A stretch of DNA of 64,000 nt, taken from positions 186,001 to 250,000 of the forward strand of contig CAVNZM010000011.1 of assembly GCA_963693365.1 (NCBI GenBank), given 5' to 3'. The notes under the pieces were generated by a model. It made no database searches and was not told the DNA's origin. It saw nothing but the letters and a program-made list of their open reading frames with translations. The position numbers and the translations under genes are program-made. Below are positions 4,371 to 64,000 of this stretch, piece after piece. Source of the DNA: Amoebidium appalachense (lineage: Eukaryota; Protista; Ichthyosporea). How positions within the stretch are numbered: the first letter of the stretch is position 1; each line of letters starts with the position of its first letter.

Positions 4371-7176
4371 ACACATACACACATACACACATACACACAC
4401 ACACACATACACACAGGGCACTTTGGCATGTGACCTGGATGTCAACTCGTCGATGGAAGAATCTTTGGAAGAAGCAACCAAAGAGGTGAGACCCCCCCTC
4501 CCCGCCTCCTCCTTCCCCAAGAATAAAGACAAAAAATTCGAGAAAGAAATAAAGAAAAGAAAAGGTAAGGAAAACGGAAAAGAAAAAGGAGGTGGACAAA
4601 GAAAAGAAAAGGAAACAACCAATAAATGGAAGGAAGTAAGAGACGAAAAAGCTGGGAACATAAGCACACGAAAGAAGGTACAAAAGGGAAACGGGAAGAT
4701 TTGCAACCACCCACCCGCACCTTATAAGCCCTGTGGAGCTCGTCTTTATCTGCCAATATGTTCGAGCAGGCTGTAAACCGGATGGTATTACGGCATGTTT
4801 GTATTGGGAGGTTTTAAATCGGGGGGGGGGGGTGTCACTGTGTGATAATAGATAGGGAGGGTGTAAAAGAAGGCATCGCTATCTGTTTGGTCCCAGGGGG
4901 CTGCAAGCTAGTCGGCTTCACTGCAGAGTTCGTAGTGGCCAGCACCACAAATCAGAAGCTTTAATCTCTCATTCTCATCAACCCCCCCCCCACCGCACGA
5001 CTCCCGCAGGACACCATTGCAAACATCCTTGCACAACCCTGCCCTTGCAACGACCCGCACTATGCGCCATACGTACACCCACAACACGGACACGTGCTTA
5101 CATCGCGCTTAGACATTCCCGGCCTGCCCGCAGACTTTGCATCGCTCATGCATTTTGGAACCAAGTTCCGAATGCAGGTCGAGCAAACGGAGGACACCAC
5201 CTGTAGCAATTTATTGACACAGGCGTTGCAAAGTGTAACAAGATGTACGATCTTGGTATGGCAGCTTATCCCTCTTTGAATCCGTGGGCAGCCGCCGTCT
5301 TTACTAAGTGTCGCCCCTTCCTGCCATATGCACAACACGCACCCAACACACACACCGTACCACAAGCTTCTGTGCTTCTACTGCGTCGCTTCCAAAAACG
5401 TTTCGTAGTCACCACAATGGATAAAGCTAGCAACACGTTCGTGATCGTCTGCAAAAAACACTACGTTAGCAGCATTACAGCCGAACTGCATGCACCTGCC
5501 GCAACATACACCGTCTGCAACACTGCACCAAAAGACATTGTTGCACAACACCTTGCATTTCTCAAAACACATGACATAAAAGGCACACCAGGACGTCGCA
5601 CTGCACGCTTGCCCACATTTCAGGCCATAGTTAAAATGCACAAAACACCACCCACCTTCCGTTTCATTGCCAACTCCTCTGCCACATCACTTGAACCTCT
5701 CTCCCGCCTTCTCACTAGTGTGTTTAAGTTCGTCTCCCCTGATGTCGAACGTATGTGGTGTGATGTTGTCAAACCCCACCTGCCACACAACACTAGCTCT
5801 TGGATTCTCACGGATAGCACCGCACTCACACACACAATCAACGCCCTTAACCGTACCACACGCCAACACGAAAATACGCCCGTGTCTGTGTTTGATTTTT
5901 CCACACTCTACACCAAGATTGACTTGCATGATTTGAAAGCTCGCCTCACTACACTGATTGACGCAATATTTGTCAAAAAATGCACGGACGCTCGCAAACC
6001 ACACATGTTTATTAAGAAAACCGGCTCCACGTTGTCCTGGGTGGATCGTGTAGATGATGATTCCCAGGATGATTCCTTTGAGCCTAAAGAACACTCTCTA
6101 CATCTCTCTAAGGCACAGCTTGTGGATTTTCTATGTTTCCTCGTAGATAACATATATGTTGTGTTTGGCGATACCCTCTACAAACAGGACATTGGTATCC
6201 CCATGGGTACAAACTGTGCTGTTTTCTTGGCTAATTTCTATCTCTTTACTTATGAGTTGGATTTTGTTCGCAAGCTTATTGCACACGAACGCATTGATGT
6301 CTTGGTAGATTTTCAGTTTACTCGCCGCTACATAGATGATTTGATCTCCCTTCATAATCCTCGCATTCTCTCCCACCTCTATTTAGAAGATTGTGATTTC
6401 GGTCTATATCCCAAGACCAGCCTTCAACTCAACCCTGCCGGTTCCTCCCCCTCTGTCCCCTACCTCGACTTGCATATCACCTGCACTAATCACGGCATTC
6501 ACACAACCATCTACAACAAGCTCGACACACCCACGTTCAATACACTAGACATCGTTCGTTTCCCACATCACGACTCATTCATCTCCCGCACTGCAAAATA
6601 CGGCATCATGACAAGTCAAATGCATAGCTACCAGCGCAAATGCTCCACACTTGCTGCATTCACCACATGCACTGCACGACTTGCTAAAACATTGCTTAAC
6701 AAAGGCTACTCGTTTAGACTCTTGCACCACAAAATGCACAGCTTTCTCGCCACACACCCGCACATATACCGTGGCGTTCACTCCTCTCACATACTCTCCA
6801 TCATCACTAAAAAGATCAACACTCCCTAGTCCCCCACTCTATCCCGGTTCCCCCCCCCCCCCCCCCCCCCCCCCTCCCCCCCTACCAGCCCCTACACCTC
6901 CCCCCCCCCCCCCCCCCCTCCCCCCCCCCCTCCCTCTCTCTCTCCCTCTCTCTCTCCCTCTCCCTCTCTCTCCCTCCCTCTCTCTCTCTCTCCCTCTCCC
7001 CCTCTCCCCCCCTTCCCCCTCCCCCCCCCCCCCCCCCCCCCCCCCCCCTCTCTCTCTCCCCCCGCTCCTTTTCCCAAACAATTCCCCCGCCGTTCTTCTT
7101 TCTCAGCCGGCTAGGTTTTTTGGGTTGCCTGGTAAGTTTTGAAATGGAGGTCTCGTCTCTGATCTGTCCACCACAG

Positions 7177-9359: not shown

Positions 9360-11976
9360 GGGGGTGGTGGGCAGGGGGGAGGTTTAGCTGGTGGATGGGC
9401 TCTTTAGCAAATTGTAGGACCACACGTGCCTGTTTATTGGCTGTTGTTGGAATATTTCAGTGGGGCAGAGACAGCTGTTCCGATCCTGTCCTCTTTTGTG
9501 TGGGGAAGTGGTGTGAATAGCCTGCCAGACATATCGCTATAGTGTTGGCAGCTAGAACGTTTGGTGGTCACGCAGTAATCTTGGTCATAGTGATGGTCTT
9601 TACTTGCAGCGAAGCGGGCGGCGGCGGCAACGACATTCTGGACACTGACACAGTCCAGAGCTTATATACTATGATTGGAATGTGGAGTCATCCCAACAGA
9701 GATCCAATCACATACCAGCCGAGATCCCTATATGACTTAGAACCAATCATCATCCCATAGTCATCACGATCACGATAGCGAGTGAGATGGGTTGACATAT
9801 GCGATCACATATCCTGACAGCTGTGTATCATGCCGGTATGCTGACACCCCACCAATCAGATGCGGACCGAGGAGTTGCAGCTGCTGCTGGCATGTGCTGT
9901 GGGTCCCCCCTCCCCCCTCCTCCCCTTCCACGTGGCATGTGCTTGGTGGGCTCTGTGCTATTTTGCTGTTTTTTGTGTGCCTTGTTAGATGCTGTTTGTC
10001 GCACATGTCAACTCTCCTAATCACCCACCATAACGCAGGACTTTCACACACACACACACACACACGAACACACACGAACACACACACGAACACACACAGG
10101 AGGCCGATGTAGCCCGCCTGGAGTGTGAGTGCGAAGAGTTGAGGCAGCAGCTGGGGGAGGCCAAGGGGTGGGCCAAGAGGGCCCAGCACCTGACAGAGCA
10201 GGTGGGGGGGGTTTATTGCAAAAGTGCATGTGATAGGTGGGGGGGTTTAATTGCACAGTGCATGTGATAGTTGGGGGGGTTTAATTGCACAGTGCATGAG
10301 ATAAGTGGGGCGGTTTGGTTGCACAGTACATGATATAGGTGGGGGAAGGGGGGGGGGGGGGGGGGGGGGGGGGTAATTGCACAGTACATGAGATAGGACC
10401 CCCTGGCCTATCACCTTAGGCATGATATGGCACCACCCCTCGGCTGTTACAGGAGGGTGGCCGGGAGGGCTGGGGTTGCTTTATCCAGCGCCGATTGTGC
10501 ACATTTGATGTGCCAATCCGTTTGGATTGGACAGTGGACAGGGGTATGTAGATTGGGCAGACCATGGAGTTATCATTCACGTAGGCACATATGTGTTAGT
10601 TTTTTTTTTTTTTTTTTTGGGGGGGGGGGGAGGGGGGGGGGGGAGTTGGAGGCACACAGCACCTGCACGGGTGCACGTGCAGATGCCTAACATGTACCTA
10701 AACCCACCTGACACCCCCTCCCCCCAGCACGTGCAGATGCAGCAGCAGCTGTGGGGGTTGGAGGAGCAACTGGCTGCCGTGGCCGAGAGAGAGAGAGAGG
10801 CACAGAGGGCATGCAGGGGCGCAGGGGAGAGGGCCCGCAGGTGGGAGGAGGATTGTGCTGACATGGCGGTAAGTGGTGGGGGAAGGGGGAGGGAGGAGGG
10901 GGGAGGTGGCGATGGGAGTGGTGGCGGAACTGACAGGGGGTGCAGGCACGCATGGGGGTGGAGAGGGAGGAGTGGGCCAAAGAGAGGGGGGCCTGGAGAG
11001 TGCCCTCCTTGAGTTGGAGAGGGAGAGGGAGGGGCTGGCAGTCAGGGTGTTTGAGCTGGAGAGAGAGAACACCGTGCTGGCTGAGGGCCTGCTTGCTGCC
11101 AGCGACCAGCTGGATGCATGCAAGGTGGGTGCATGCACACATGCAGGGATTGGTGCTGGGCAGGGGGGAGCGGGGAGGGGGAGGTGGGCTCTAGAGCTAA
11201 CGGGGGGGTTTTACAGACTTTGGCCGACGATGGACGGGCCGGCAGCAGACCACCCAGCCCCTATGGAGTCCCCCAGGTGGGTGGGGGTGGGCACTGGCTG
11301 GCATGGGGGTGGGCACTGGCTGATATGGGGGGAGGGCACTGGCTGATATGGGGGGTGGGCACTGGCTGGCATGGGGGGTGGGCACTGGCTGGCATGGGGG
11401 TGGGCACTGGCTGATATGGGGGGTGGGTTTTCAGCTGCCGTCACTGGCACATGAGCTCCGAGCCAGCGGGCACAGAGGCAGCCCAAAGGGTATGTGGCTC
11501 CCGGTAATTGCTTGGCTCTCCCAAGTCTTATTCCCCAGCACCCATTTTGCTTTTTCAAGTTCTATTTCCCAGCACAGTCCTATGTGCCTCCAGCACCCAT
11601 TTTGCTTTTTCAAGTTCTATTTCCCAGCACAGTCCTATGTGCCTCAGCACCCATTCAGTCCTACTTTTAAAACCACCTCCAGCACCCATTCAGTCCTACT
11701 TTTAAAACCATTCAGTCCTACTTTTAACACCATTCAGTCCTACTTTTAAAACCATTCAGTCCTACTTTTAAAACCACCTACATCATGCACCTTCCTCACC
11801 CCACCCCCCTGTACCCCCCAGCCACACCGCGCAAGGCCACACCAGCCAGCCCCCAGCAGGCATTTGCCACGGCAAGACAGACACAGGGCAAGCACACGGA
11901 CAGCAAAGAGAACAGATACAGCACCCCCACAGTCAGGAAGCAGCTGTTCCCTGCAGGTGCACACACGCGCGCGCAC

Positions 11977-14517: not shown

Positions 14518-14632
14518 GTGGCCTGTTGCCTTTTGTGGGTGTTTTTCCTCGTGTTTATTTTTATTTTTCAGAAACTTGTTGAAACTAGAAAATCTAATGT
14601 AAAATATGCCTGTGTAGAGACAACATATTTAT
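14518..14632 (+). repeat. 115-bp direct repeat, copy 1 (copy 2 at 17399-17513)
   Basis: gtggcctgttgccttttgtggg...gagacaacatatttat appears identical at both positions. Confidence 0.95.
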
Positions 14633-17398: not shown

Positions 17399-17513
17399 GT
17401 GGCCTGTTGCCTTTTGTGGGTGTTTTTCCTCGTGTTTATTTTTATTTTTCAGAAACTTGTTGAAACTAGAAAATCTAATGTAAAATATGCCTGTGTAGAG
17501 ACAACATATTTAT
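17399..17513 (+). repeat. 115-bp direct repeat, copy 2
   Basis: Matches 14518-14632. Confidence 0.95.
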
Positions 17514-25209: not shown

Positions 25210-25675
25210 TCTGTCATGATTGTCCGCACACCCCTGCCCGGACCGGCGTTTTTTTGTAGCTCGAGATAAATTCATGTGGCTGTGTTCGACCCGTGCGAGA
25301 TAGCCTAAATTCGGTGGGGCTCATGTACGAAAGGGCGGGCGCCCCAAGGACTTTCCGGGGCTAGAGTAGCCACCGTGTACGCCCAACGTTAACTTTGCGT
25401 TTGTTTGCTACTCGAAAACTGATGCTTAGCAGAACTTCAGCCCCAGTATCACAGAGATGAGAGAGGGGGTGCTCTGGGTAAGACCGAGACAGAGAGACCG
25501 GCTGAGATAGACTCCGGAGGGAGGATTCGAAGGATCTTCAGAGGGAGATCTGAGAGCTTGATAGAGCCGAGAGAGAGATTCGAGAAGAGATTCTCAGTGT
25601 GCGTGTTTGTGCCTGTGAGTTGAGCGTGTGTGTGTGTGAGGCTGGGCGGGGGGGGGGGGGGGGGGGGGGGGGGGG

Positions 25676-25712
<37 letters not shown>

Positions 25713-25744
25713 GAGGGAAGGCGAGAGGGAAGGCGAGAGCGAGC

Positions 25745-25841
<97 letters not shown>

Positions 25842-25880
25842 GGAGAGAGAGAGCCGGTGAGAGAGTGAGCCCGGAGAGAG

Positions 25881-25927
<47 letters not shown>

Positions 25928-25966
25928 GAGAGCCTCGGAGAGGGAGAGAGAGAGCCTCGAGGAGAG

Positions 25967-26025
<59 letters not shown>

Positions 26026-26083
26026 TCAGAGAGAGAGAGAGACTCCTCGCGGGGGGGGGGGGGGGGGGGGAGAAGAGAGAGAC

Positions 26084-26150
<67 letters not shown>

Positions 26151-26886
26151 CTCTGAGAGAGACAGAGAGAGAGAGAGAGAGCCTCTCGAGAGGGAGAGAG
26201 AGAGAGAGAGAGAGAGCCTCGGAGAGAGAGAGAGAGAGAGAGAGAAAAGAGCCTCAGAGAGAGCCGGAGAGAGCCTTGGAGAGAGAGCCGAGGAGAGACA
26301 CTGTGAGATCATGATATGCTAATGCGGTGCACAAGCTGTGTGTCGGACACTGTGTGTGTCTGCACACCAGCCTGCATTATGGTAAAACCACTCTTTGAGA
26401 AGCATAATGTTAAACACAGAGCGCGTGTCCAGCTGCAGCCGGAAAACACGGAGGCAACGCGGTGTGTGCATATGCTAGCTGGCACCCGCTCGCAGCGTGT
26501 ATGCATGGAGTACACAAGGGCACAGTGCACAGAAAAAAAAAAAGAAAAAAAAAACTTACTATGGATCTGTGGAGTGCTCCTTTAGCTAAGGTTCAGTATG
26601 CATACAGCGTGCATATGGTTTGCATTCAGCGCACTTAGTACTAGTTAGCACAAAGCTCCCAGGTAGCAAACAAACGCAAAGTTAACGTTGGGCGTACACG
26701 TCAAACAACGGTGGCTCGGCGGATCCAGCCCCGAAAAGTCCTCGGGGCGCCCGCCCTTTCGTACATGAGCGCCACCAAATTTAGGCTATCTCGCACGGGT
26801 CGAACACAGCCACATAAATTTATCTCGAGCTACAAAAAAACGCCAGAATCCGGGGGTGGTAAATGTGTGCGGTCATTCGTCCCAGA
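25210..26886. mobile_element. Non-autonomous element with ~200-bp TIRs and a GA-microsatellite core
   Basis: 25245-25410 (gcgttttttgtagctcgagataaatt...aacgttaactttgcgtttgtttgctac) is the imperfect reverse complement of 26662-26845, with looser similarity to ~25210/26886. No TSD resolved. Confidence 0.85.
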
Positions 26887-27065
26887 GTTTGCGCTGTGGC
26901 TCGCCCGAAAGGGTGCACTTTTCCAAAAAAAAATGGTGAAGGCCTACTGACTGCTGTGTTGGCTTGATTTCGAGGGCTTTGGGAGGTCTTGCTTGCACTG
27001 CATGTTCTGAGGGTAACCGTTCGTCCTTCCGCATCCACTTCCCCCGTCTCTCTGTGCACGCAGCC

Positions 27066-28333
27066 ATGGCAGCCACACGCCATGCCGAGACCGCTGCTGC
27101 GGCGCTGCAGCAGCAGCTACTAAGCGAAGACACCCCCCTCGCTCTGCTCTACGACCTGGCCGCCTTCCGCCAGGCCATGCACGACCTGACTGCCGCCTTC
27201 CCCGCCCACTTCCTGCACACAATGGCCGTCAAGTCAAACCCCACCCTCGCCATTATGCAGCTGGCATACACCGACGGCAGGCTGGGCTTCGAGGCGGCCT
27301 CGCTGGGAGAGCTGGTGCAGTCGCTGAGGACCGGCGCACCCCCAGGTGTGTGTGTGCTGGCTGCTTGCAGGGCAGTTAGGTGGGTGAAGCGGGGGGAGTG
27401 GTTGGGGCAGGCAGAAAGCCGGGGAGGAAGGGGGTAGAGCAGGAAGACAAGGGCGGGTGGGGGGTGGGGGCATTTTCCCCTATATATTTGTTCCTTTTTC
27501 TCTTCGTTTTATTCAATTTTACTTTTGAGTGAGTAAGAAAGGGTTCCGATGGCATTACACAAATTAAGCCATCTTAAGGTAGCTGGAACCATGCAATTGC
27601 AACGATCGATCTCCGGGCCAAACTCATATGAAAAACAGGGTTACATCGAGAGTTAAAAGGTACCAGGGATATGCGCTAGAGCTATAATTTTTGCATGATA
27701 TTTATGAAAATTGTGTTTTCATCAAATGCTCCGTAGAGAAAATTTATAACTCACTTGGTTCAGTGTCAGCCAAAAAAAAAAAAAATGACCAAATCTGGTA
27801 CGTTTTAGTACTATGTAAAATGTACCAGATTTGGTGCAGTTGGTTTTTTTGTTGCTGACGCTGACCAGTTGAGTTATAATTTTTCTGTACTGAGCATTTG
27901 AAGAAGACACTAATTTCATAATTATCATGCATATTTTATAGCTCTAGCGCATATCCCTAGTACCTTTTTACTCTCCATGTGACCCTGTTTTTCATATGAG
28001 TTTGGCCCGGAGATCGACCGCCGCAACTCCATGGTTCCAGCCATCTCAATAAAAATACCATAGTACTGGTGTCTAACAACTGGCACACACTCGCACTATG
28101 TATGAGTAGTATAGTCCGTTCTCCACGGCAGAGGAAAACGGGGGAGGGGGAGGGGAAGGGAGAGGGGGGGGGGGGGGGGGGGGGGGAGAGAAAGGGGGGG
28201 GGGGGGGGGGGGGGGGGGGGACGGGAGGGGGAGTATATTGGACAGCCAACGAGGAACCAAGTAGAATTTGACGTATGGCTGACACTTCTCTAGGAGAAAT
28301 CGAAAGCCTTTTTTCGTTTTTTTTTTTTTTTGT

Positions 28334-29967: not shown

Positions 29968-30784
29968 TGGTGCCGGCAGCATTGCCACACACTCGACGTC
30001 GACCGCGACATCCAAATTTGGGTTTGCGCTGAAGGACCAATACGAAGAGATCCTGGGTGGCTATGCGCAATATGATTGGCTCAATGCCGTGCACGTGCAC
30101 GTGGGCTCGCAGGGCATTGGCTTTGACATGGCCGTGGCCGGCATACGGGCAGGGGTGGAGCTGGCTCTAGAGGTGAACAGGAGGGCAGGCAGGCAGCAGG
30201 TGCGTGGGTGAACGGGACTGTTTGATTGTGCAGATGCACGAGGTAGCTCTCCTTCCCTTTCTTTTTTTTTTATTAAGAAAATTAAAAATTAAAAAAATGT
30301 GTGGGTTTGTGGATGGTGGATGGTGGTGGCGGGCAGGGGGGGGGGCTGCTATCTATGTTTGGTTTGAAGAGAATTTGCCCGAATCCAAAGGTACATTGAA
30401 TGCTGCCATATCAGTAATTTAGTTGTCTGTGTGTGTAGTGCAGCAAGTATGTGACCTACGTCCCTGGTGTAGGTGGTGTGCATGGACATCGGGGGGGGCC
30501 TGTCGGTCAACTTTGCATCTGCAGAGGTCACCCCCTCATTTAAGGCCTATGCCGATGCACTTAAGGCTAGCATACCCGAACTGTTTTCTGGGGATTTTAA
30601 AGTCATCACAGAGTTTGGCCGGGCACTGACGGCAAAGGCTGGTTGGTTTGCCAGCCACGTGGAGTACACAAAGGTCTCGGGGTACGTGGTCTCTCTCTCT
30701 CTCTCTCTCTCCCTCCCTCCCTCCCTCCCTCTTTCTCTCCCTCCCTCCTTCTCTCTCTCCCTCCCTCCCTCTCTCTCTCCCTCC

Positions 30785-49477: not shown

Positions 49478-49751
49478 GTGCCAAGTGTCAGAAAACGCTT
49501 CACACTATATTATCTCTGGAGACGGCACTCCACTTCAGTACAACAGTTCAGATTCTATAGAACGCCTCGCGAAGAAGCGGCACCAGTCAGATCTATACTG
49601 AGCAGCACGTGGGAAACCTCCGGCACTCCACTTATTAGCTAGAAGGGCGGCACTGTAAGCTAGCTATCCTCTATCCGAGTATCGTGTCACTAAACTAAGG
49701 CACATGGGGTTGGCACCCAGACTATTAATAAAGTCTTCACACTATTGAGTC

Positions 49752-50147
49752 TGTCAGAATATGCAATCGCACATGTCAACCCATCTCACTCGCTATCGTG
49801 ATCGTGATGACTATGGGATGATGGTAGCTTAAAAGGAGGCGACATGATTGGTTCTAAGTCATATAGGGATCTCGGCTGGTATGTGACTGGATCTCTGTTG
49901 GGATGACTTTGCATTCCAATCGTAGTATATAATCTCTGGACTGTGTCAGTCCAGATTGTCGTTGTCGCCGCCGCCCGCTTCGCTGCAAGTAAAGACCATC
50001 GCTATGACCAAGATTACTGCGTGACGACCAAACGTTCTAGCTGCCAACACTATGGCGATATGTCTGACAGGCTAGTCACACCACTTCCGCACACAAAAGA
50101 GGACAGGATCGGAACAGCTGTCTCTGCCCCACTGAAATATTCCAACA
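49752..50147 (-). repeat. Dispersed repeat copy (inverted relative to 9445-9820), partly duplicated again at ~50683-50785
   Basis: Direct sequence comparison; atgattggttctaagtcata..gggatc..ggctggtatgtga..ggatctctgttgggatgactttgca occurs at both ~49845 and ~50710. Confidence 0.88.
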
Positions 50148-52769: not shown

Positions 52770-53461
52770 AAAAACCCCAATTGCTTCTATTAGTATCCGC
52801 AGTAAGTCGGTCGACCACTATGCAAAAACAACGCGTTTTCTTCTCAGTTTTGCCCTCCGACGTCTGATCAGGCTCCAATCATCATGATCACGGAAACGGT
52901 ATTTTTACCGCGCTTATGCTGTTCTTTGCCAGGTATCGACGCTAAACCGGACATTTCGATTCGCAAATCAAGGTACACTCAAATAGCATTGAAAAGCCCC
53001 AACGAATGATTGTTCGACACCATATTTACCTAAATTACAGATTTAATATAAACTAAATGATTCCCGATTTTGCTGACAGGGTAATTGTTACCATCTAGTT
53101 ACCGCGCTCCTGGAAGCGAATCCAATGCGTTATCTCTCATTCCATCGACCCAGGAGCCAATCCAATCGAGTTTTTGAAAGTGATTTTTGTCCACCGTGAC
53201 CTTCCCCCGCCCAAAAAACGTTACCGGTGACCACCCTCCCCCTTCCAACCCAGTGCGAAATTAAGGGATACGGGATCGGCGATTTTGAGTGGTCCCCGAT
53301 TTCTTTCTGGCGCCGCCTTTTTTTCCCCTGATTACGTAACGCGTTGCTACGCACCCACGCCGTACAACGAGTTTTGTGTTCGCACGTTAACGCAGAGGGC
53401 GCACAACCCGAAATAATTTTTTTCATGTAAAGAAACTACTTTGAATACATGCACTTTTACC

Positions 53462-54202
53462 ATGGGTGTGCAGGGCTTGCTCCCAGCACTCGGCATTAGT
53501 GCCGAAAAAGCCACAGATGTTACTGCAGAGTTGCAACGTGGGGTAGTTGCTTTTGACGGGATGGTGCAGGTCCACAAGTCCTTTTCAGTTTTCGCTGACA
53601 CAGTAGCCAAACAGCAAATAGATGACAAAAAAGTCACAGACGACACATATGCAGCTATTGCAAATCACTTTATGTCCAAAGTTAATACGTATAGGCTAGC
53701 AGGGGTCCAGCCACACTATGTGTTTGATGGGCGCAGATTGAAAGAGGGAAAACTAGTTGATAACGACCGTGCAGAAAAGGTGGTCAAAGCCCGCCAAGAA
53801 ATAGCCACAAAAAGAGAGAAACAGGAGGAGGTAACTAAAAACAAATGGAGAAGCGCTGCAGAGTTAGATAACAGAGTTTTACATGCAATCATCCTTAGAC
53901 TGAAAGATGAGAATGTCGATTACACAGTAGCTCCATACGAAGCAGACCCCCAGCTTGCCTATATGGCACGTACCGGTTTGGCACACACTGTTGTCACTGA
54001 GGATGCCGACCTTCTTCTGTATAACATCCCGCGGGTTGTATACAAACTGCGCATTGCGGATGTGGCGGTCATCCCTGGGACCGCTAATGCGGTGCGCATT
54101 CCCAAACTGTACGGAGTGATTGTAACCCCCGCCGATGTTTTTACCAGAAGCACAAAGTACAACATAATGTGTGTGTGTGTGTGGGGGGGGGGGGGTCAGT
54201 AA
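53462..54202 (+). CDS. Exo1/XPG/FEN1-family (PIN-like) 5' nuclease, N and I regions; truncated or spliced before the H3TH motif
   Basis: MGVQGLL, VAFDG..HK, GVQPHYVFDG..K, VAPYEADPQLAY and VVTEDADLLLY..VVYKL match Exo1 motifs with the acidic residues intact. There is no intron over ~700 bp. The frame runs into a GT/G-run repeat at ~54168. Confidence 0.9.
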   Translation: MGVQGLLPALGISAEKATDVTAELQRGVVAFDGMVQVHKSFSVFADTVAKQQIDDKKVTDDTYAAIANHFMSKVNTYRLAGVQPHYVFDGRRLKEGKLVDNDRAEKVVKARQEIATKREKQEEVTKNKWRSAAELDNRVLHAIILRLKDENVDYTVAPYEADPQLAYMARTGLAHTVVTEDADLLLYNIPRVVYKLRIADVAVIPGTANAVRIPKLYGVIVTPADVFTRSTKYNIMCVCVWGGGGQ

Positions 54203-54488
54203 TCTTCTGACCGATCTAGTGAACCTATAATGAATGAATGAAGACCGTGTGTCAAATCTGAGAGCAATGTACCAGACCCTGGTGCCTGCATATGTTTCCT
54301 ACCCCCCCCCCCCCCCCCCCCCACCCCCCCTCCCCCGGTCCCTCCTCCCCCCTTGGTGTTTGCATACGTGCCTACCTTCCCCCCCCCCCCCCCCCCCCCC
54401 CCCCCACACGTGTGTGTGTGTGTGTGGGGGGGGGGGCGTGCATGCGTGCGTGTGTGCAAATGCATGCGTGGGTGCGTGGGTGCGTGGG

Positions 54489-54519
<31 letters not shown>

Positions 54520-54701
54520 TTCCGTGTGTGCGTGGTTGTGTGTGTTTGTGAAGGGGGGGGGGGGGGGGGGGGGAGAACGACTCAAGGTTGTACTTGGCAC
54601 ACAAATACATAATAATTTCAATTATTATTATTATTTTCCTATACAGGAAAAGTGGAGCCCTACTGGCCGAATACATACATGCAAGCATTCATTCATATTT
54701 T

Positions 54702-54785
<84 letters not shown>

Positions 54786-54834
54786 CAGAGAAGGGGGCTT
54801 TAGGGAGAGGCACTGGCAATCGAAAACGAAAATT

Positions 54835-56751
54835 CTACACCATGCTTTTGGTGTGCCCGGGCCCCACCATATCCTTATATAGTGGCTCTTGCATGTTACA
54901 CAAGAAAGCCACAGCCTTAGCTACCATCCAATGGGTGCCTACCATCGACATCTGCACCTGATTGCTAAACAGCCGATAATTTTTCATGCGCCCAAAAGCC
55001 CTCTCCACATGCACGCGCACACTAGACAGTCTTTGGCTATATATGGTGTCTTCAGCGTTTAGCTGCCCATGCTCAACAAACGACGGTAATAGCAAGGAAG
55101 CACCCTTCTCCATGATTAGCCCGTGCACTCTAAACCCTTTATCAGCTGCTATTTCATCCCCCTCTTCTATCTGATCTACAAATTCACGCTTGCATACACC
55201 TGTGAGATCCGGGTCTTTGAACCCCCCCACATGTGCATCGGACACCGGTCTGAGTTTCATATCCGTTGTGATGCCCCCGAAGTACTTGAGAGTATAATTG
55301 CTTTTGTACTCTGAGTAGAAACATCGTTTCAGAAGGAGGTTTGTCGGCACCTGTACAAACACCTCGGTGCAATCAATGATCCACCGTACATCGTCCCATT
55401 GCCCAGTGTAGCAACCGGCTTTAAACTTCGAAAGTTGCTCTCTGGTGGGGGCTTTTTCGTATAGAAAAACCTGTGCTAACGCCAGTGCACCAAGAAAATG
55501 GCGGAATATACGCGAAAGATTCGGTTCTGACACATCCACCAGCCGACTCAATAGTTGGAAGGATGTGCCGTGGCGGAGGCGAAAAAGTGTAAAAAGACAT
55601 CCATCATGCCATATTATTTCCTTTCCTGTTTTGGTTTTAAAATCATTCATGTTTATAGTTGATTGGCCAATAAAAGCAACAATCCCCAGCACTCCCATGA
55701 GAGCATCAAAACTATCCAACCCCGTGTATGTTTTCACCACATCATCTCTAGCCTTCCCTTCCTCTTCCGCCACTATGTGCTCCATGCATATTCTTTTCTG
55801 GTTTTGTAGTAATTCCTCCCTCGCTTGATCAAGCGCTTGTTCGAGCTCCTTCTTCTCCAATCTTTGTTTCTTCTCATTTTCCTCCAATTGCTTCGTAGCT
55901 ATCTCAAGTTCGATTTGCATTTTCTCCGCCTGCTCCTTATAGAAAGCTCTTGAACGTTCCAGGACATTCACATAATCCTCTACATCCATCCCTTCCTCAC
56001 CTGCCTTCGACTCTAGATAGTCAAATGTCCTTTCACGCACATGTTCCCTCCTTCTTTTCGCTCGTTCACTGTCCTCTGCTTCTTCACTGCTCGTCTCCCC
56101 CCGCTCCCTCGCTCGTTTCCGTGTTTGCTCAATATCTGAGGCATCCATTCCTACAGCTTGCATATGACTATTGGCCCTTTCCTCCCTCAATAGCTGTACC
56201 TTCTCTCTGTACATCGGGTCTAGTTCCATTCGGATGGGACATGCATCCTTTGTTAATTTCAGTTTTCCATTCTTAGCAGTAATATCATCATCGGTGAAAT
56301 GTGCCTCGCATACAACCAGTTGCTTAAGGATAGCCAGTGGCCAGGGGACTTCCACCTTCGGTTGCCCCCGTTTCCTCTTTGGTTGTGGTTCTTGTGCCGA
56401 CTGCTCAGCTGGCACAGCCGAGTCATTGGCATTTTCGGATTGTGTGTCAGCTGTGTGTGTCTCAGTAGTGGTTGTGTCTGTATTTACGTCTGTCCCATCC
56501 GAGGCCTTTGGCCTTGTGTCTGTGTGTGTGTCTGGGTCGGGGGGTGCTTGCTTTGTGTGTTCTGCTATTTGTTTCCGCTCATACTTTGTTTGCTCCTGCC
56601 TGCCTATAGCATTTAACCAAGCATGCCTCCTAGCCAATACATTTGGTTTGTATCCATATGGAACAGTAAAAAGCTTTATCTTCCTGGTAGGATCTTTGGG
56701 AGAGACTGTTTCTTCGTCATTTTTGCAGTAGTTAGCCGCGCAAGTTGGCAT
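54835..56751 (-). CDS. THAP + HTH + DDE_Tnp_4 transposase (ISL2EU/Harbinger type), 638 aa, intact
   Basis: THAP: MPTCAANYC..LFTVP..RRHAWL..VCEAHF..LTKDACP. HTH: YTGL..LFTLFRLRHG..LS..F. Catalytic triad: IIDCTE, ADKGF, RVHVERAFGRMK. Also YSEYKSNYTLK. Confidence 0.95.
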   Translation of the reverse strand: MPTCAANYCKNDEETVSPKDPTRKIKLFTVPYGYKPNVLARRHAWLNAIGRQEQTKYERKQIAEHTKQAPPDPDTHTDTRPKASDGTDVNTDTTTTETHTADTQSENANDSAVPAEQSAQEPQPKRKRGQPKVEVPWPLAILKQLVVCEAHFTDDDITAKNGKLKLTKDACPIRMELDPMYREKVQLLREERANSHMQAVGMDASDIEQTRKRARERGETSSEEAEDSERAKRRREHVRERTFDYLESKAGEEGMDVEDYVNVLERSRAFYKEQAEKMQIELEIATKQLEENEKKQRLEKKELEQALDQAREELLQNQKRICMEHIVAEEEGKARDDVVKTYTGLDSFDALMGVLGIVAFIGQSTINMNDFKTKTGKEIIWHDGCLFTLFRLRHGTSFQLLSRLVDVSEPNLSRIFRHFLGALALAQVFLYEKAPTREQLSKFKAGCYTGQWDDVRWIIDCTEVFVQVPTNLLLKRCFYSEYKSNYTLKYFGGITTDMKLRPVSDAHVGGFKDPDLTGVCKREFVDQIEEGDEIAADKGFRVHGLIMEKGASLLLPSFVEHGQLNAEDTIYSQRLSSVRVHVERAFGRMKNYRLFSNQVQMSMVGTHWMVAKAVAFLCNMQEPLYKDMVGPGHTKSMV

Positions 56752-57338
56752 TGTGAGTGCCTAACATATATAGTTAGAAAACAACCCGCCTTCATGAAAA
56801 ATGTGCAGCGCAGTTTTGTCCGGACACGTGTGTGGCATGCCGTGTGTACATGGTATAGCTCGGCCACACGATCTTAGGTGCCCAATAGGCAGATCAAGCC
56901 CACTCAATCCAGATAGATATCGATCTGAGCGGCGCCAGAAAGTATTCGAGCCGCGCGATCCCGTATCCCTTAATGGGCACCGTATGCAGAATAGAAAGGG
57001 CCTCTGGCCCCAATAAGCCTCCTGTACTCAAATCAATCTTTTCATCGTAGATATTTGTCTTTTCACGTGTTCGTGTATGAATGGTTGTGTGTGTGTGTGT
57101 GTGTTTGTATGTGTGTGTGTGTGTGTGTGTGTGTGCATGCATATGGTGTGTGTGTGTGCATGTATATGTGCAGGACATGACTAATGGTGTCGTGTGTGTG
57201 TGTGTAGTACGTTTGTGTGTGCACATGCATATGTGTACGTGTGCCGTGTGTGTGCTTGTGTGTGTGTCTGTGTGTGTGTGCGTGTGTGTGCGTGTGTGTG
57301 TGTGTGTGTCACGGTGTGTGTGTGTCACGGTGTGTACG

Positions 57339-60763: not shown

Positions 60764-63700
60764 CCCTTCTTCCTCCTAGGTCTCTGTACCCCCCCACCCC
60801 CCTCCCCCCTCCTGCCCCCAAACCAATTAACCAACCGGGAAAAGAAGAAGTGGGGAGACCTAGGGAGGGAGAAGAGACAGCCCCGGCGGGGGGGGGGGGG
60901 GGGGGGGGGGGGAGGGGGGGGGGGGGGAGATGAGGAAGTGAGAGCAAGGGGGGGGGGGGGGGGGGGGAGGGGGGGGGATGGGGAGGGATTGAGTGAGAGA
61001 GGGACTGAGAGTACGTGAGGAGTAGGAAATGAAGAGAAGAGACAGGAAAACGGTATAAACGAAGAAAAGTAGAGGGAAACAACAAGCGCAAAAGTTCTCT
61101 TACCATCCCCCCCTCCCCCCCCCCCCCCCCCCCCCTTCCCTCCCTCCCCCTTCCCCCTCCCTCCCCCCCCCCCCCCCCCCCCCCCTCCCCCCTCCCCGAG
61201 ATAATAGACTCCACCTATGTTTGAAAATCTACTTGGGAGTTCTTTGGTGTCAGTTCTGAAACTCCTTTCTCTCTACCGCATTATAAACCAAAAAAAGAAG
61301 CAAAGACATCCCTAATTTGGAAAGTGGTCAACCCAGGTGAATGCTGCTTTTGTTCTTGAGGTGATTGGCTAATATAGAGGTAGTACAAACAGGAGTTCTT
61401 GTGGTACCAATGACAATATATAACAAAACCATAGTTCCGTGAGCACAAAAATATCAACACGATGGCATAACACACAAAAGCATGTGACATTTTGCAGGCC
61501 CCATACGCCCACGTCAATTATGACAGACATAGAAGCACAAAAATAATCTGGGTGTCACACGCATATAAGCACAACAGATCGGACCAGAAAACAGTTTATA
61601 CACAGGTTGACACCACGGTGTAACAGGTACATAAACTACACCCTACGACGCACTGCAGGCATGTAGACCACACCATGATCCATATTGAATCCTGTCAGCA
61701 ACGGATCATCACCACCCAATGCACCCACCCAACACCACACCCCCTTGTACTCACTGTGCTTTTGCTCTCAGACGTGCTTCATGCCCCGCAAGCTGATCAC
61801 CCTAGACACCACCCACGGGACCCAATGGTTGGCCACAAATCTGCCACTGTGCCACTCCAACGCCTGCAAGCTAGGGCAGTGCACCAGCCCATACACAGCA
61901 AAGATGGTGAATAGCGAGGGCAACCTGGGGGGCCACTTTAACCCCCAGCATGATAGTGGGGACGGCCAAAAGCGCATCGACATGTGGCCCGGCAGCCAGG
62001 TCGACGGGGGGTCTTTGGACTGCGACTGTAATTTCGTAGCTCGGGGGGAGGTGGGGGCACAGGAGGTGCGCAGTGAGGGGTGTGAGGGGGGGCAGAGCAA
62101 CTGGGGGATGGCTGCGGCCAGTGACGGATTCTACCAACCAGACTCCTTCAAGCGCGCAGTACAGGTGCTGACCGAACAGCCCCCCCCCCCCCCCCCCCCC
62201 CCAAACACACACACAAAAACACTCCCCTCCCCCCCCCCCCCCAAACACACACGCAAAAACACTCCCCTCCCCCTCCCCCCCCCCCCCCCCCCCCCCCCCA
62301 AACACACACACAAACGCACTCCCCTCCCCCCCCCCCCCCCCCCAACACACACACAAAAGCACTCCCCTCCCCCTCCCCCCCCCCCCCCCTCAGACACACA
62401 CACACAGAAGCACTGCCCTCCCTCCCCCCTCCCCCCCCCCCCCCCCCCCCCCCCACACACACACACAGACACGCATTCACAAGGACACAGAAACACATCC
62501 CCCCGCTCTCCCAAAGATAAAAAGAAAATGAAAGAAAAGAGGAGGGTGGGAGGTGTGTTTTTGGGTGGGGGGGGGGGGGGGGGGATACTTTAGAGTGCCT
62601 ATAGAAGAGGCGGTCAGATAGAGGCACCCAATGTGCACCAGAAAGGAGACAGAAAGAAATGATAGCCTAAGCTCATTGAGCCCGCCACACAACCACCATG
62701 GGTAAGCATGAATTCGCTTACTCAGCTATACAGAGCCAATCAGCAAACGTTACGTCATTTTTAACCAAATATGTTTATTCGAGAAATCAAGATAGTGATC
62801 TGATTGGTGTTGCCGTGAAGTTTGGAGCTGGAGTTTCGGGTCGAATCGGTTTCACTTAGTAGGAAACTTTTTCCTTCTGGCAGCCTGAGTTTTGCAAATC
62901 GCAGGCTTTTATTTGAATAATATGAGTAATCGGCAGAGACTTTGTTCACCCTTGAAAGCCGCGTGTACAGGAATGCTACACTAATAGCGCGAAGGTCGAT
63001 TCGCGAAGACTTAGGCGGATTCAGTCGGATGCACCTCTCTATAAATTCTCAAAATTCCAGAGGCTCAACGCACTTTTTAGCCCGACCCGAAATTGGCGAT
63101 CGAAACGAAAATTACGTAATTTTGCCTAAACCAATCAGGAAGTCAATAACGTCAAAAATAGACAAATTTGGCTACTTTGGAATTTCTATTAATTCAATCG
63201 GGTCACACCAATCAGAATCTGCGTACAGCAAGCGAATTCATGCTCCATGGGTATGTATCTGCATCCACACACCATCCATACCACATGCCCTCGCTGATCC
63301 CCCCCCCCACCCCCACCCGTCCCCCTCCTCCCCCCTTCCCCGCCACGAGAATTCTGACGGCTCCCCCTGCTGTGCACCTCCGAGCCTCCGAAATCCCCTC
63401 CCCCCATTCCCCCCCCCCTCCGCCCCCACCACCACCACCAACACCCTTTTCACCTTCGTCTCGACCAGCGCTTCTGAGTCGAGTTGTTGGTAATTAATGA
63501 AACTAACTATTAGTCCCCCCCCCCCCCCCCCCCCCCCCTCCTCTCTCCCTTCTGTGCACTGCAGCGATGCTACCAGCCACTATTCCTTGTCAAGACATCA
63601 TCAACAACGGGTGCACTGTGTGGCCACCGCCTGCCCATCTGCCAGGGTGGGGGCTGTGATGGGGGCCCATGTGGCCGGGGCTACACCCCCCACCTCATAG

Positions 63701-64000
63701 ATGCCACTGGTAACCCCGGGGACCGCTTCAACAGCAGCAACCAGATGCCTAACCGTGCAGATATGTGGCCCGGCAACGAAATACCGGGGGGGTTTCTGGA
63801 CTGCGCCTGCCGGTGGAAGGCCTTCGACCCTCTAATTGGCCCCCGGGTGCAGATTGTGGCCAGCATACGGGTCGAGCCAATGGACTCGCTGGTGGCCGGC
63901 CCGATAGCTAATGCCACGGTGCTGCTGTACGGCCAGAACAAGACTGAGCCCTTGGCCCGGGGCCTGACAGGTCCTGACGGGCAGTATGACTTTGGCAAGG
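58865..64000 (+). CDS. Secreted/surface protein with two Cys-rich repeats followed by a Cna-B/carboxypeptidase-regulatory-like beta domain (runs off the window)
   Basis: Exon 58865-59002 carries a signal-like LLACALALAHTIHA and ends AAG|GTGAGT. Further exons lie at ~60278-60394, 61772-62164 and 63565->64000 (open to the end; absent from the ORF track). The last exon ends with PIANATVLLY..LARGLTGPDGQYDF. Confidence 0.72.
60030..60262. repeat. Degenerate intronic minisatellite (tttgccctaatatggtgtgg core)
   Basis: The core recurs several times with variable spacing just before an acceptor site. Confidence 0.75.
62705..63244. mobile_element. 540-bp MITE with a 9-bp TSD (Mutator-like)
   Basis: TIR agcatgaattcgctt (62705-62719) / aagcgaattcatgct (63230-63244), with a perfect TSD ccatgggta at 62696-62704 and 63245-63253. 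Confidence 0.92.

Follow-up and report, generated by a model that had tools for sequence, protein, structure and literature searches.

Why would a DNA transposon carry, beside its transposase gene, a gene for a nuclease of the EXO1 type? The question is raised by a 64,000-nucleotide stretch from the ichthyosporean Amoebidium appalachense (contig CAVNZM010000011.1, positions 186,001 to 250,000 of the forward strand; hereafter the window, to which all coordinates refer), in which an element of 3,711 bp (53262-56972, the ends being set from empty-site contigs) harbours two convergent open reading frames (ORFs). One of these, 54835-56751 on the minus strand, encodes a transposase of 638 amino acids, while the other, 53462-54202 on the plus strand, is an uninterrupted frame of 246 amino acids whose product is EXO1-like. 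Elements of the ISL2EU group (IS4EU; PHIS superfamily) are described in the accessible part of PMC4482050 as animal transposons that duplicate an AT target, encode a THAP-HTH-DDE transposase and in most cases have YqaJ in a second ORF (PMC9179366 is a further source on the group), and the Discussion of PMC4482050 states that it is unknown what this second ORF does in PHIS transposons. Judged from its sequence, the Amoebidium element appears to be an ISL2EU-type DNA transposon with an EXO1-like partner, that is, a variant and not a plain member of the group, because its target duplication and transposase agree with those of ISL2EU while YqaJ and a GG terminus are lacking.

The two genes of the element

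The transposase frame has Pfam matches to THAP, HTH_Tnp_4 and DDE_Tnp_4. Motif positions and alignment place a split THAP domain (C4, C9, C148, H151) at the N-terminus, followed by a coiled linker, HTH_Tnp_4 (residues 383-424) and DDE_Tnp_4, whose D460, D537 and E583 stand in the expected motifs. A neighbour cluster in the Atlas is named “Putative is4eu-1 dr” (score 0.96); a sequence search returned two unnamed matches of 28% identity, and a PDB search with the transposase profile gave a weak THAP match alone. The first-pass annotation, made from the letters of the window, had proposed an intact THAP-DDE_Tnp_4 transposase of an ISL2EU-type element as one of exactly two convergent ORFs between the terminal inverted repeats (TIRs), all of which agrees with the present results, the AT duplication described below included.

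The same annotation had proposed that the partner of the transposase is an XPG-family nuclease and not YqaJ. This proposal holds: residues 1-234 of the second ORF (53462-54163, plus strand) comprise the XPG N and I regions according to Pfam (XPG_N, E value 3e-5; XPG_I, 4e-13), the match to human EXO1 and the fold model, and none of the 12 other frames of 83 amino acids or more that were scanned inside the element matches YqaJ. Among relatives of solved structure, human EXO1 gives the best match in sequence (E value 1e-17, FEN1 being found at 5e-10 or weaker). The predicted structure (predicted local distance difference test score 78) likewise points to EXO1 in a Foldseek search (E value 1e-14, template modelling scores of 0.72-0.76), and in structural alignments the model shares 25-27% identity with cellular EXO1 vs at most 20% with models of viral FEN/XPG proteins.

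The motifs FDG, VFDG, EAD and EDAD, reported earlier for this ORF, are all present, and the conserved residues are G2, D32, H38, D89, R103, E160, D162, D181 and D183. Six of the seven acidic residues are thus kept (D32, D89, E160, D162, D181 and D183, corresponding to D30, D78, E150, D152, D171 and D173 of human EXO1), together with the equivalents of human H36 and R92 (the latter being R103); the WLH motif of EXO1 reads QVH. The earlier description of the nuclease was too generous in one respect, in that the ORF is incomplete and misses the part with H3TH and GCDY (see below). Residues 1-234 are encoded without an intron. That both frames of the element are uninterrupted accords with the contrast to intron-rich host genes that had been drawn for the window at large; the one host gene checked, a pyridoxal phosphate (PLP) decarboxylase, is indeed split, its Pfam domain lying at 26940-27434 and 30473-30700.

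Ends of the element and copies at other sites

Eighteen of the 24 listed public runs contain half or more of the sampled words of the element, and contigs of five runs (X1, X2, X12 and X15 among them) were aligned on its two arms, 52850-54295 and 54790-57070. Comparison of the window to itself revealed a perfect inverted match of 19 bp (53260-53278 and 56956-56974); shuffling the two 300-bp end regions 1000 times gave inverted matches of 13 bp at most. A further inverted motif of 14 bp, present at 53303-53316 (plus strand) and 56929-56942 (minus strand), is subterminal and likely a transposase-binding site. Both pairs had been noticed in the first-pass annotation and are real, while the ends of the element, placed there at 53265 and 56969, had to be moved outwards. 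In runs X1 and X2, contigs follow the left flank to 53261 and then pass directly into the right flank, which is the structure of an empty site, and the mirror join, from the right flank back into the left flank, was found in X1, X12 and X2. Since the empty sites hold one AT and the filled site two (53260-53261 and 56973-56974), the element extends from 53262 to 56972, with an AT target-site duplication (TSD) and TIRs of 17 bp starting with TAAGGG (left, TAAGGGATACGGGATCG, 53262-53278, plus strand; right, 56956-56972, minus strand). AT being palindromic, this is indistinguishable from a blunt insertion between A and T in which the element has one additional base on either side. Among the contig rows listed, AT is kept in four of seven at the left end and in 4/4 at the right end; in one X1 contig AT stands directly before GGG. 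Two other delimitations were tried and are ruled out by the empty site: termini at GGG (53265 to 56969), and a Kolobok-like TTAA duplication, TTAA flanking the GGG/CCC core at both ends and the empty site holding only AT.

The element is inserted in the end of another repeat (about 52790-53261 and 56975-57000 of the window), and in the contigs the joined flanks occur in diverged versions, which continue into several different sequences after about 56998-57018. Since the flank is itself a repeat, the empty sites may be paralogous.

The window self-comparison found no second copy of the element elsewhere in the 64 kb; in the contigs, it is a multi-copy element, inserted at several sites. Other flanks join at the left TIR, and the right-end contig rows listed show three flanks that differ from that of the window and join after 56974 or 56976; two right-end contigs match just the 30-32 terminal bases. 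One X12 contig runs from a different flank of 125 bases through the left TIR into the nuclease ORF, of which it covers 640 bases (to 54099). The nuclease thus travels with the TIR and is not tied to one site, and a one-off capture at the site in the window is excluded. Contig depth is similar for the nuclease vs the right arm (979 vs 959 in X2; 219-249 vs 231-273 in X1) and lower for the flank (186 in X2, 44-63 in X1), the arms of the element reaching about 4-5 times the flank; depth of this kind is no copy number and serves as a hint only.

A derivative with a deleted transposase gene was found in X12, X2 and X15, where 55003 is joined to 56084 at a 2-base microhomology. The missing 1,080-bp segment (55004-56083, minus strand), present in the window, is deleted in frame and carries the HTH, D460 and D537, so that by codon arithmetic the predicted remainder is a THAP protein of 278 amino acids. 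The transposase-deleted copy of X15 has, in addition, a nonsense change at codon 117 (56403). At four positions (53414, 53428, 54063 and 55779) the bases of the window differ from those of the covering contigs of X1, X12 and X2; these are private mutations of the window copy or assembly errors. The family looks young: its copies are near-identical, the flanks vary from run to run, and deletion derivatives of either gene occur naturally.

The 3' part of the nuclease gene

The nearest proteins to the nuclease, P0003 and P0047, are separate pieces of a single EukProt transcript from Amoebidium parasiticum and are 96% identical to the nuclease. The agreement of P0003 with the window extends to KYN (residue 234, base 54163); beyond this point P0003 has 128 more residues, in which a GCDY and a GIG motif align to residues 212-236 of human EXO1; the seventh acidic residue (in GCDY, D225 of human EXO1) is kept there. 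In the window the frame departs from the sister transcript at 54163|54164, runs for 12 junk codons through a TG/G repeat and stops (54164-54202). The main X2 contig (900 bp) stops at precisely 54163, which is what a divergence of copies at this position would produce. In X12, presumably an RNA run (no run being recorded as RNA), one contig extends over 54203-54267 and then goes on with 22 A, hence this stretch probably forms the end of the nuclease mRNA that is not translated (3' side); the non-coding middle of the element, mostly simple repeats (poly-C, poly-G, TG and poly-A), follows at 54268-54834.

The window copy has probably lost about 380 bp of coding sequence (about 128 C-terminal residues) and kept the 3' end of the gene, to judge by the comparison with P0003. 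On the same grounds, full-length copies would be about 4.1 kb long and would encode a nuclease of about 360 amino acids. An intron after N234, with a damaged donor and a lost exon, or a collapse in the assembly might produce the same picture, and 54164 carries AT, not GT, with no downstream exon in the window; this is less likely than one deletion, since either two lesions or a collapsed assembly would have to be assumed. A 9-base inverted match (54157-54165 and 54588-54596), which starts just before the proposed deletion point, is probably due to chance.

Relatives of the nuclease

In phylogenetic trees (FastTree, 160 rows; IQ-TREE in quick mode, 51 of those rows; P0003 was dropped as partial) the nuclease lies on a long branch among EXO1-like sequences, its sister group being unresolved in both trees. 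In the IQ-TREE analysis its branch measures 1.16 vs a median of 0.51. The median identity to its matches is 31%, and the divergence from every EXO1 found amounts to about 65-70%, the catalytic motifs and the open frame being kept nonetheless. Among the 194 stored proteins no match of the nuclease carries a DDE domain, and a fused nuclease-transposase was found in none of the 528 candidates among proteins of 1118-3190 amino acids, which is weak evidence. Searches of viral contigs yielded no relative of the nuclease (five pattern matches) or of the transposase; three FEN-like loci of viral contigs were obtained from the alignment, and a DDE match was found in 0/3. A single exact TIR match in metagenome contigs lies inside a bacterial gene, shows no other similarity and was taken as chance.

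Branchiostoma (P0004, P0015 and P0176) and Ptychodera (P0172) have extra genes annotated as “exonuclease 1-like”, which group together (SH-aLRT 94) apart from the short-branch EXO1 cluster; P0015 is fused to HIRAN. These genes may be transposon-borne too.

Proposed role of the nuclease and alternative explanations

We consider it moderately probable, by analogy, that the nuclease serves the DDE transposase by acting on the 5' (non-transferred) strands of the transposition intermediate, which it would cut or trim. The THAP domain would bind the TIRs and the subterminal motifs; the DDE core would nick the 3' ends and attach them, staggered by 2 bases, to an AT target; the nuclease, by family a 5'-flap endonuclease and 5'-3' exonuclease, would free or trim the other strand, the same job that YqaJ would do in the ISL2EU elements of animals; and the gaps would be filled by host repair. 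EXO1 and the lambda-type YqaJ have unrelated folds and the same 5'-3' polarity, and in Tn7 the other (5', non-transferred) strand is handled by TnsA. Since about 128 C-terminal residues are likely missing from its nuclease, the window copy would be a source of transposase alone. Nuclease would come from the transposase-deleted derivative, which might also make a repressor consisting of THAP only, comparable to the KP repressor of P elements.

Several observations weigh against a working EXO1-type partner in an ISL2EU-like element. The H3TH part with GCDY is absent from the whole window, the nuclease ORF stopping before it, and in a nearly invariant lysine column (K85 of human EXO1) the nuclease has Gly96, Lys97 standing next to it. 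K85 and R92 are the gateway basic residues of human EXO1. Among the listed contigs none spans both genes at any locus, hence the linkage at other sites is deduced from the arms, and of the co-occurrence of the two genes at independent loci that the first-pass annotation called for, the part that could be confirmed is the nuclease with the left TIR in a different flank. The protein, viral-contig and fusion searches found no locus with both genes in a second species. Seven coding differences between copies (one synonymous, five missense and one nonsense) give no sign of purifying selection, the ratio of nonsynonymous to synonymous substitution rates being uninformative because the copies are too alike. 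At the left end, three of the seven contig rows listed start 1-3 bases inside the TIR, without AT|TAAGGG. Table S2 of PMC4482050 lists YqaJ in just 13 of 25 ISL2EU families, all 25 of them from animals, and Spy elements, which belong to the same superfamily, have a single ORF in most cases according to the accessible part of PMC4122938.

The nuclease might instead be dispensable for cutting and joining and resect the broken donor site for a homologous gap repair that copies the element back and so raises the copy number. Resection is the established host job of EXO1, and both the 1,080-bp deletion at its 2-base microhomology and the proposed nuclease deletion are internal and leave the ends of the element intact, as is typical where gap repair aborts in P and Ac/Ds elements; however, host EXO1 could do this resection, and such deletions also arise in elements that have no nuclease. 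We regard this role as unlikely, although no observation made here separates it from strand trimming. About as improbable, in our estimation, is that the gene is cargo and plays no part in transposition: an ISL2EU element that had lost YqaJ would have picked up an intron-less EXO1 copy on a single occasion, and the two would have been amplified together in a recent burst. Near-identical copies speak for recent amplification, and the lost H3TH part of the window copy, the glycine in the K85 column, the want of a selection signal among copies and of a second species in the searches made would all suit a passenger. A long-neutral passenger, on the other hand, would not have kept its catalytic motifs and open frame through a divergence of about 65-70% from EXO1; moreover, the nuclease gene forms a separate convergent transcription unit, in which a poly(A) site is probable, and occupies the slot where ISL2EU normally has a 5' exonuclease.

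That the two genes were brought together by chance or by the assembly, or that the nuclease is the host's own EXO1 gene, is very improbable. The homopolymer-rich DNA between the ORFs is bridged by no contig, and the window differs from its covering contigs at the four bases given above, which would fit an assembly fault. Against this, matching TIRs close both arms, the empty sites miss exactly the element, and next to a different flank, too, the left TIR leads into the nuclease.

Beyond the strand-trimming role itself, the element may belong to a distinct and widespread protist branch of ISL2EU-like transposons that carry their own EXO1-type second-strand nuclease, forming a eukaryotic two-enzyme transposase like TnsA-TnsB, a broader proposal that we put forward tentatively and with some doubt. 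If it is true, a young, transcribed family with complementing transposase-only and nuclease-only derivatives would offer a direct test of the second ORF.

Comparison with known transposons and nucleases

With ISL2EU the element shares the AT duplication, short TIRs, a length of about 4 kb, two ORFs, the THAP-HTH-DDE_Tnp_4 transposase and a second ORF that is a 5'-3' nuclease by family. It differs from ISL2EU in that the second ORF is XPG/EXO1 and not YqaJ, the TIR starts with TAAGGG and not with GG (the usual start according to the accessible part of PMC4482050), and the host is an ichthyosporean. In Table S2 of that paper no domain is assigned to the second ORF of three ISL2EU families (those of C. 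japonica and Leptinotarsa, and Hydra family 4), and XPG is not mentioned in its three supplementary files. The DDE_Tnp_4 core and the two-ORF layout are also found in PIF/Harbinger, unlike which the element shows neither a TWA duplication nor a Myb/SANT partner. From cellular EXO1 (XPG/Rad2/FEN1 family), which it resembles in the N and I regions, the fold, the acidic residues, the H36 and R92 equivalents and, in the sister P0003, H3TH, the nuclease is set apart by being transposon-borne, by the lack of an intron in residues 1-234, by its long branch, by QVH for WLH, by the glycine at K85 and, in the window copy, by its truncation.

Accessory nucleases are known from other DDE transposons. The nuclease of AcademX is of the XPG type and is part of one protein with the transposase. 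AcademX is thus, like the present element, a DDE transposon with its own accessory nuclease, its transposase being of a different superfamily and the TSD of Academ being 3-4 bp long. AcademX encodes a nuclease and AcademH a helicase, and TSD length differs between the nuclease- and helicase-coding lineages, according to the accessible part of PMC10045372; this is a precedent for accessory enzymes that act on the transposition intermediate. Kolobok lineages D, E, H and P exchange accessory enzymes (DEDDh, lambda-exonuclease, RecQ and His-Me), as described in the accessible part of PMC9587614, whose main text does not mention XPG. Kolobok resembles the present case as a DDE transposon lineage with an accessory-enzyme swap and differs from it by the Kolobok transposase and by the TTAA duplication, which the empty site excludes here. 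The swap of an accessory nuclease as such is therefore already known, and the published swaps in Kolobok and Academ lessen the surprise; the EXO1 partner for an ISL2EU transposase appears to be a new pairing. No description of XPG/EXO1 paired with an ISL2EU or Harbinger transposase was found in the literature within reach, Repbase, Dfam and most subscription journals being beyond it, and neither ISL2EU nor Harbinger is mentioned in the accessible text of the Amoebidium genome paper (PMC11244446).

The first-pass annotation concluded that an unrelated fold has displaced YqaJ and that these elements require 5' resection or flap processing; such a displacement may have occurred, and transposons of this kind may need a 5' nuclease of their own. 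If the second-ORF slot is filled by two unrelated 5'-3' nuclease folds, it likely serves a definite chemical purpose, and the known catalytic mutants of EXO1-family enzymes would make the question of the second ORF testable. The element would also extend AT-duplicating transposons of the ISL2EU type beyond the animals of the 2015 survey.

Other features of the window

Around the PLP decarboxylase gene, an inverted repeat of about 190 bp (86%) encloses GA/CT repeats at 25237-26854, just upstream of the first PLP-decarboxylase match, and is possibly a non-autonomous transposon; a palindrome of about 480 bp (85%) lies at 27574-28049, between the two matches. A dispersed 400-bp repeat (89%) occurs in inverted orientation at 9445-9820 and 49751-50147, and an identical direct repeat of 115 bp at 14518-14632 and 17399-17513. 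An open frame of 540 codons at 5207-6826 (plus strand) has no Pfam match; it contains a DKA-type motif, reminiscent of the Penelope-like reverse transcriptases. Two frames on the plus strand, 61679-62590 (without a Pfam match) and 63514-63999, share a DMWPG...GG.LDC.C motif.

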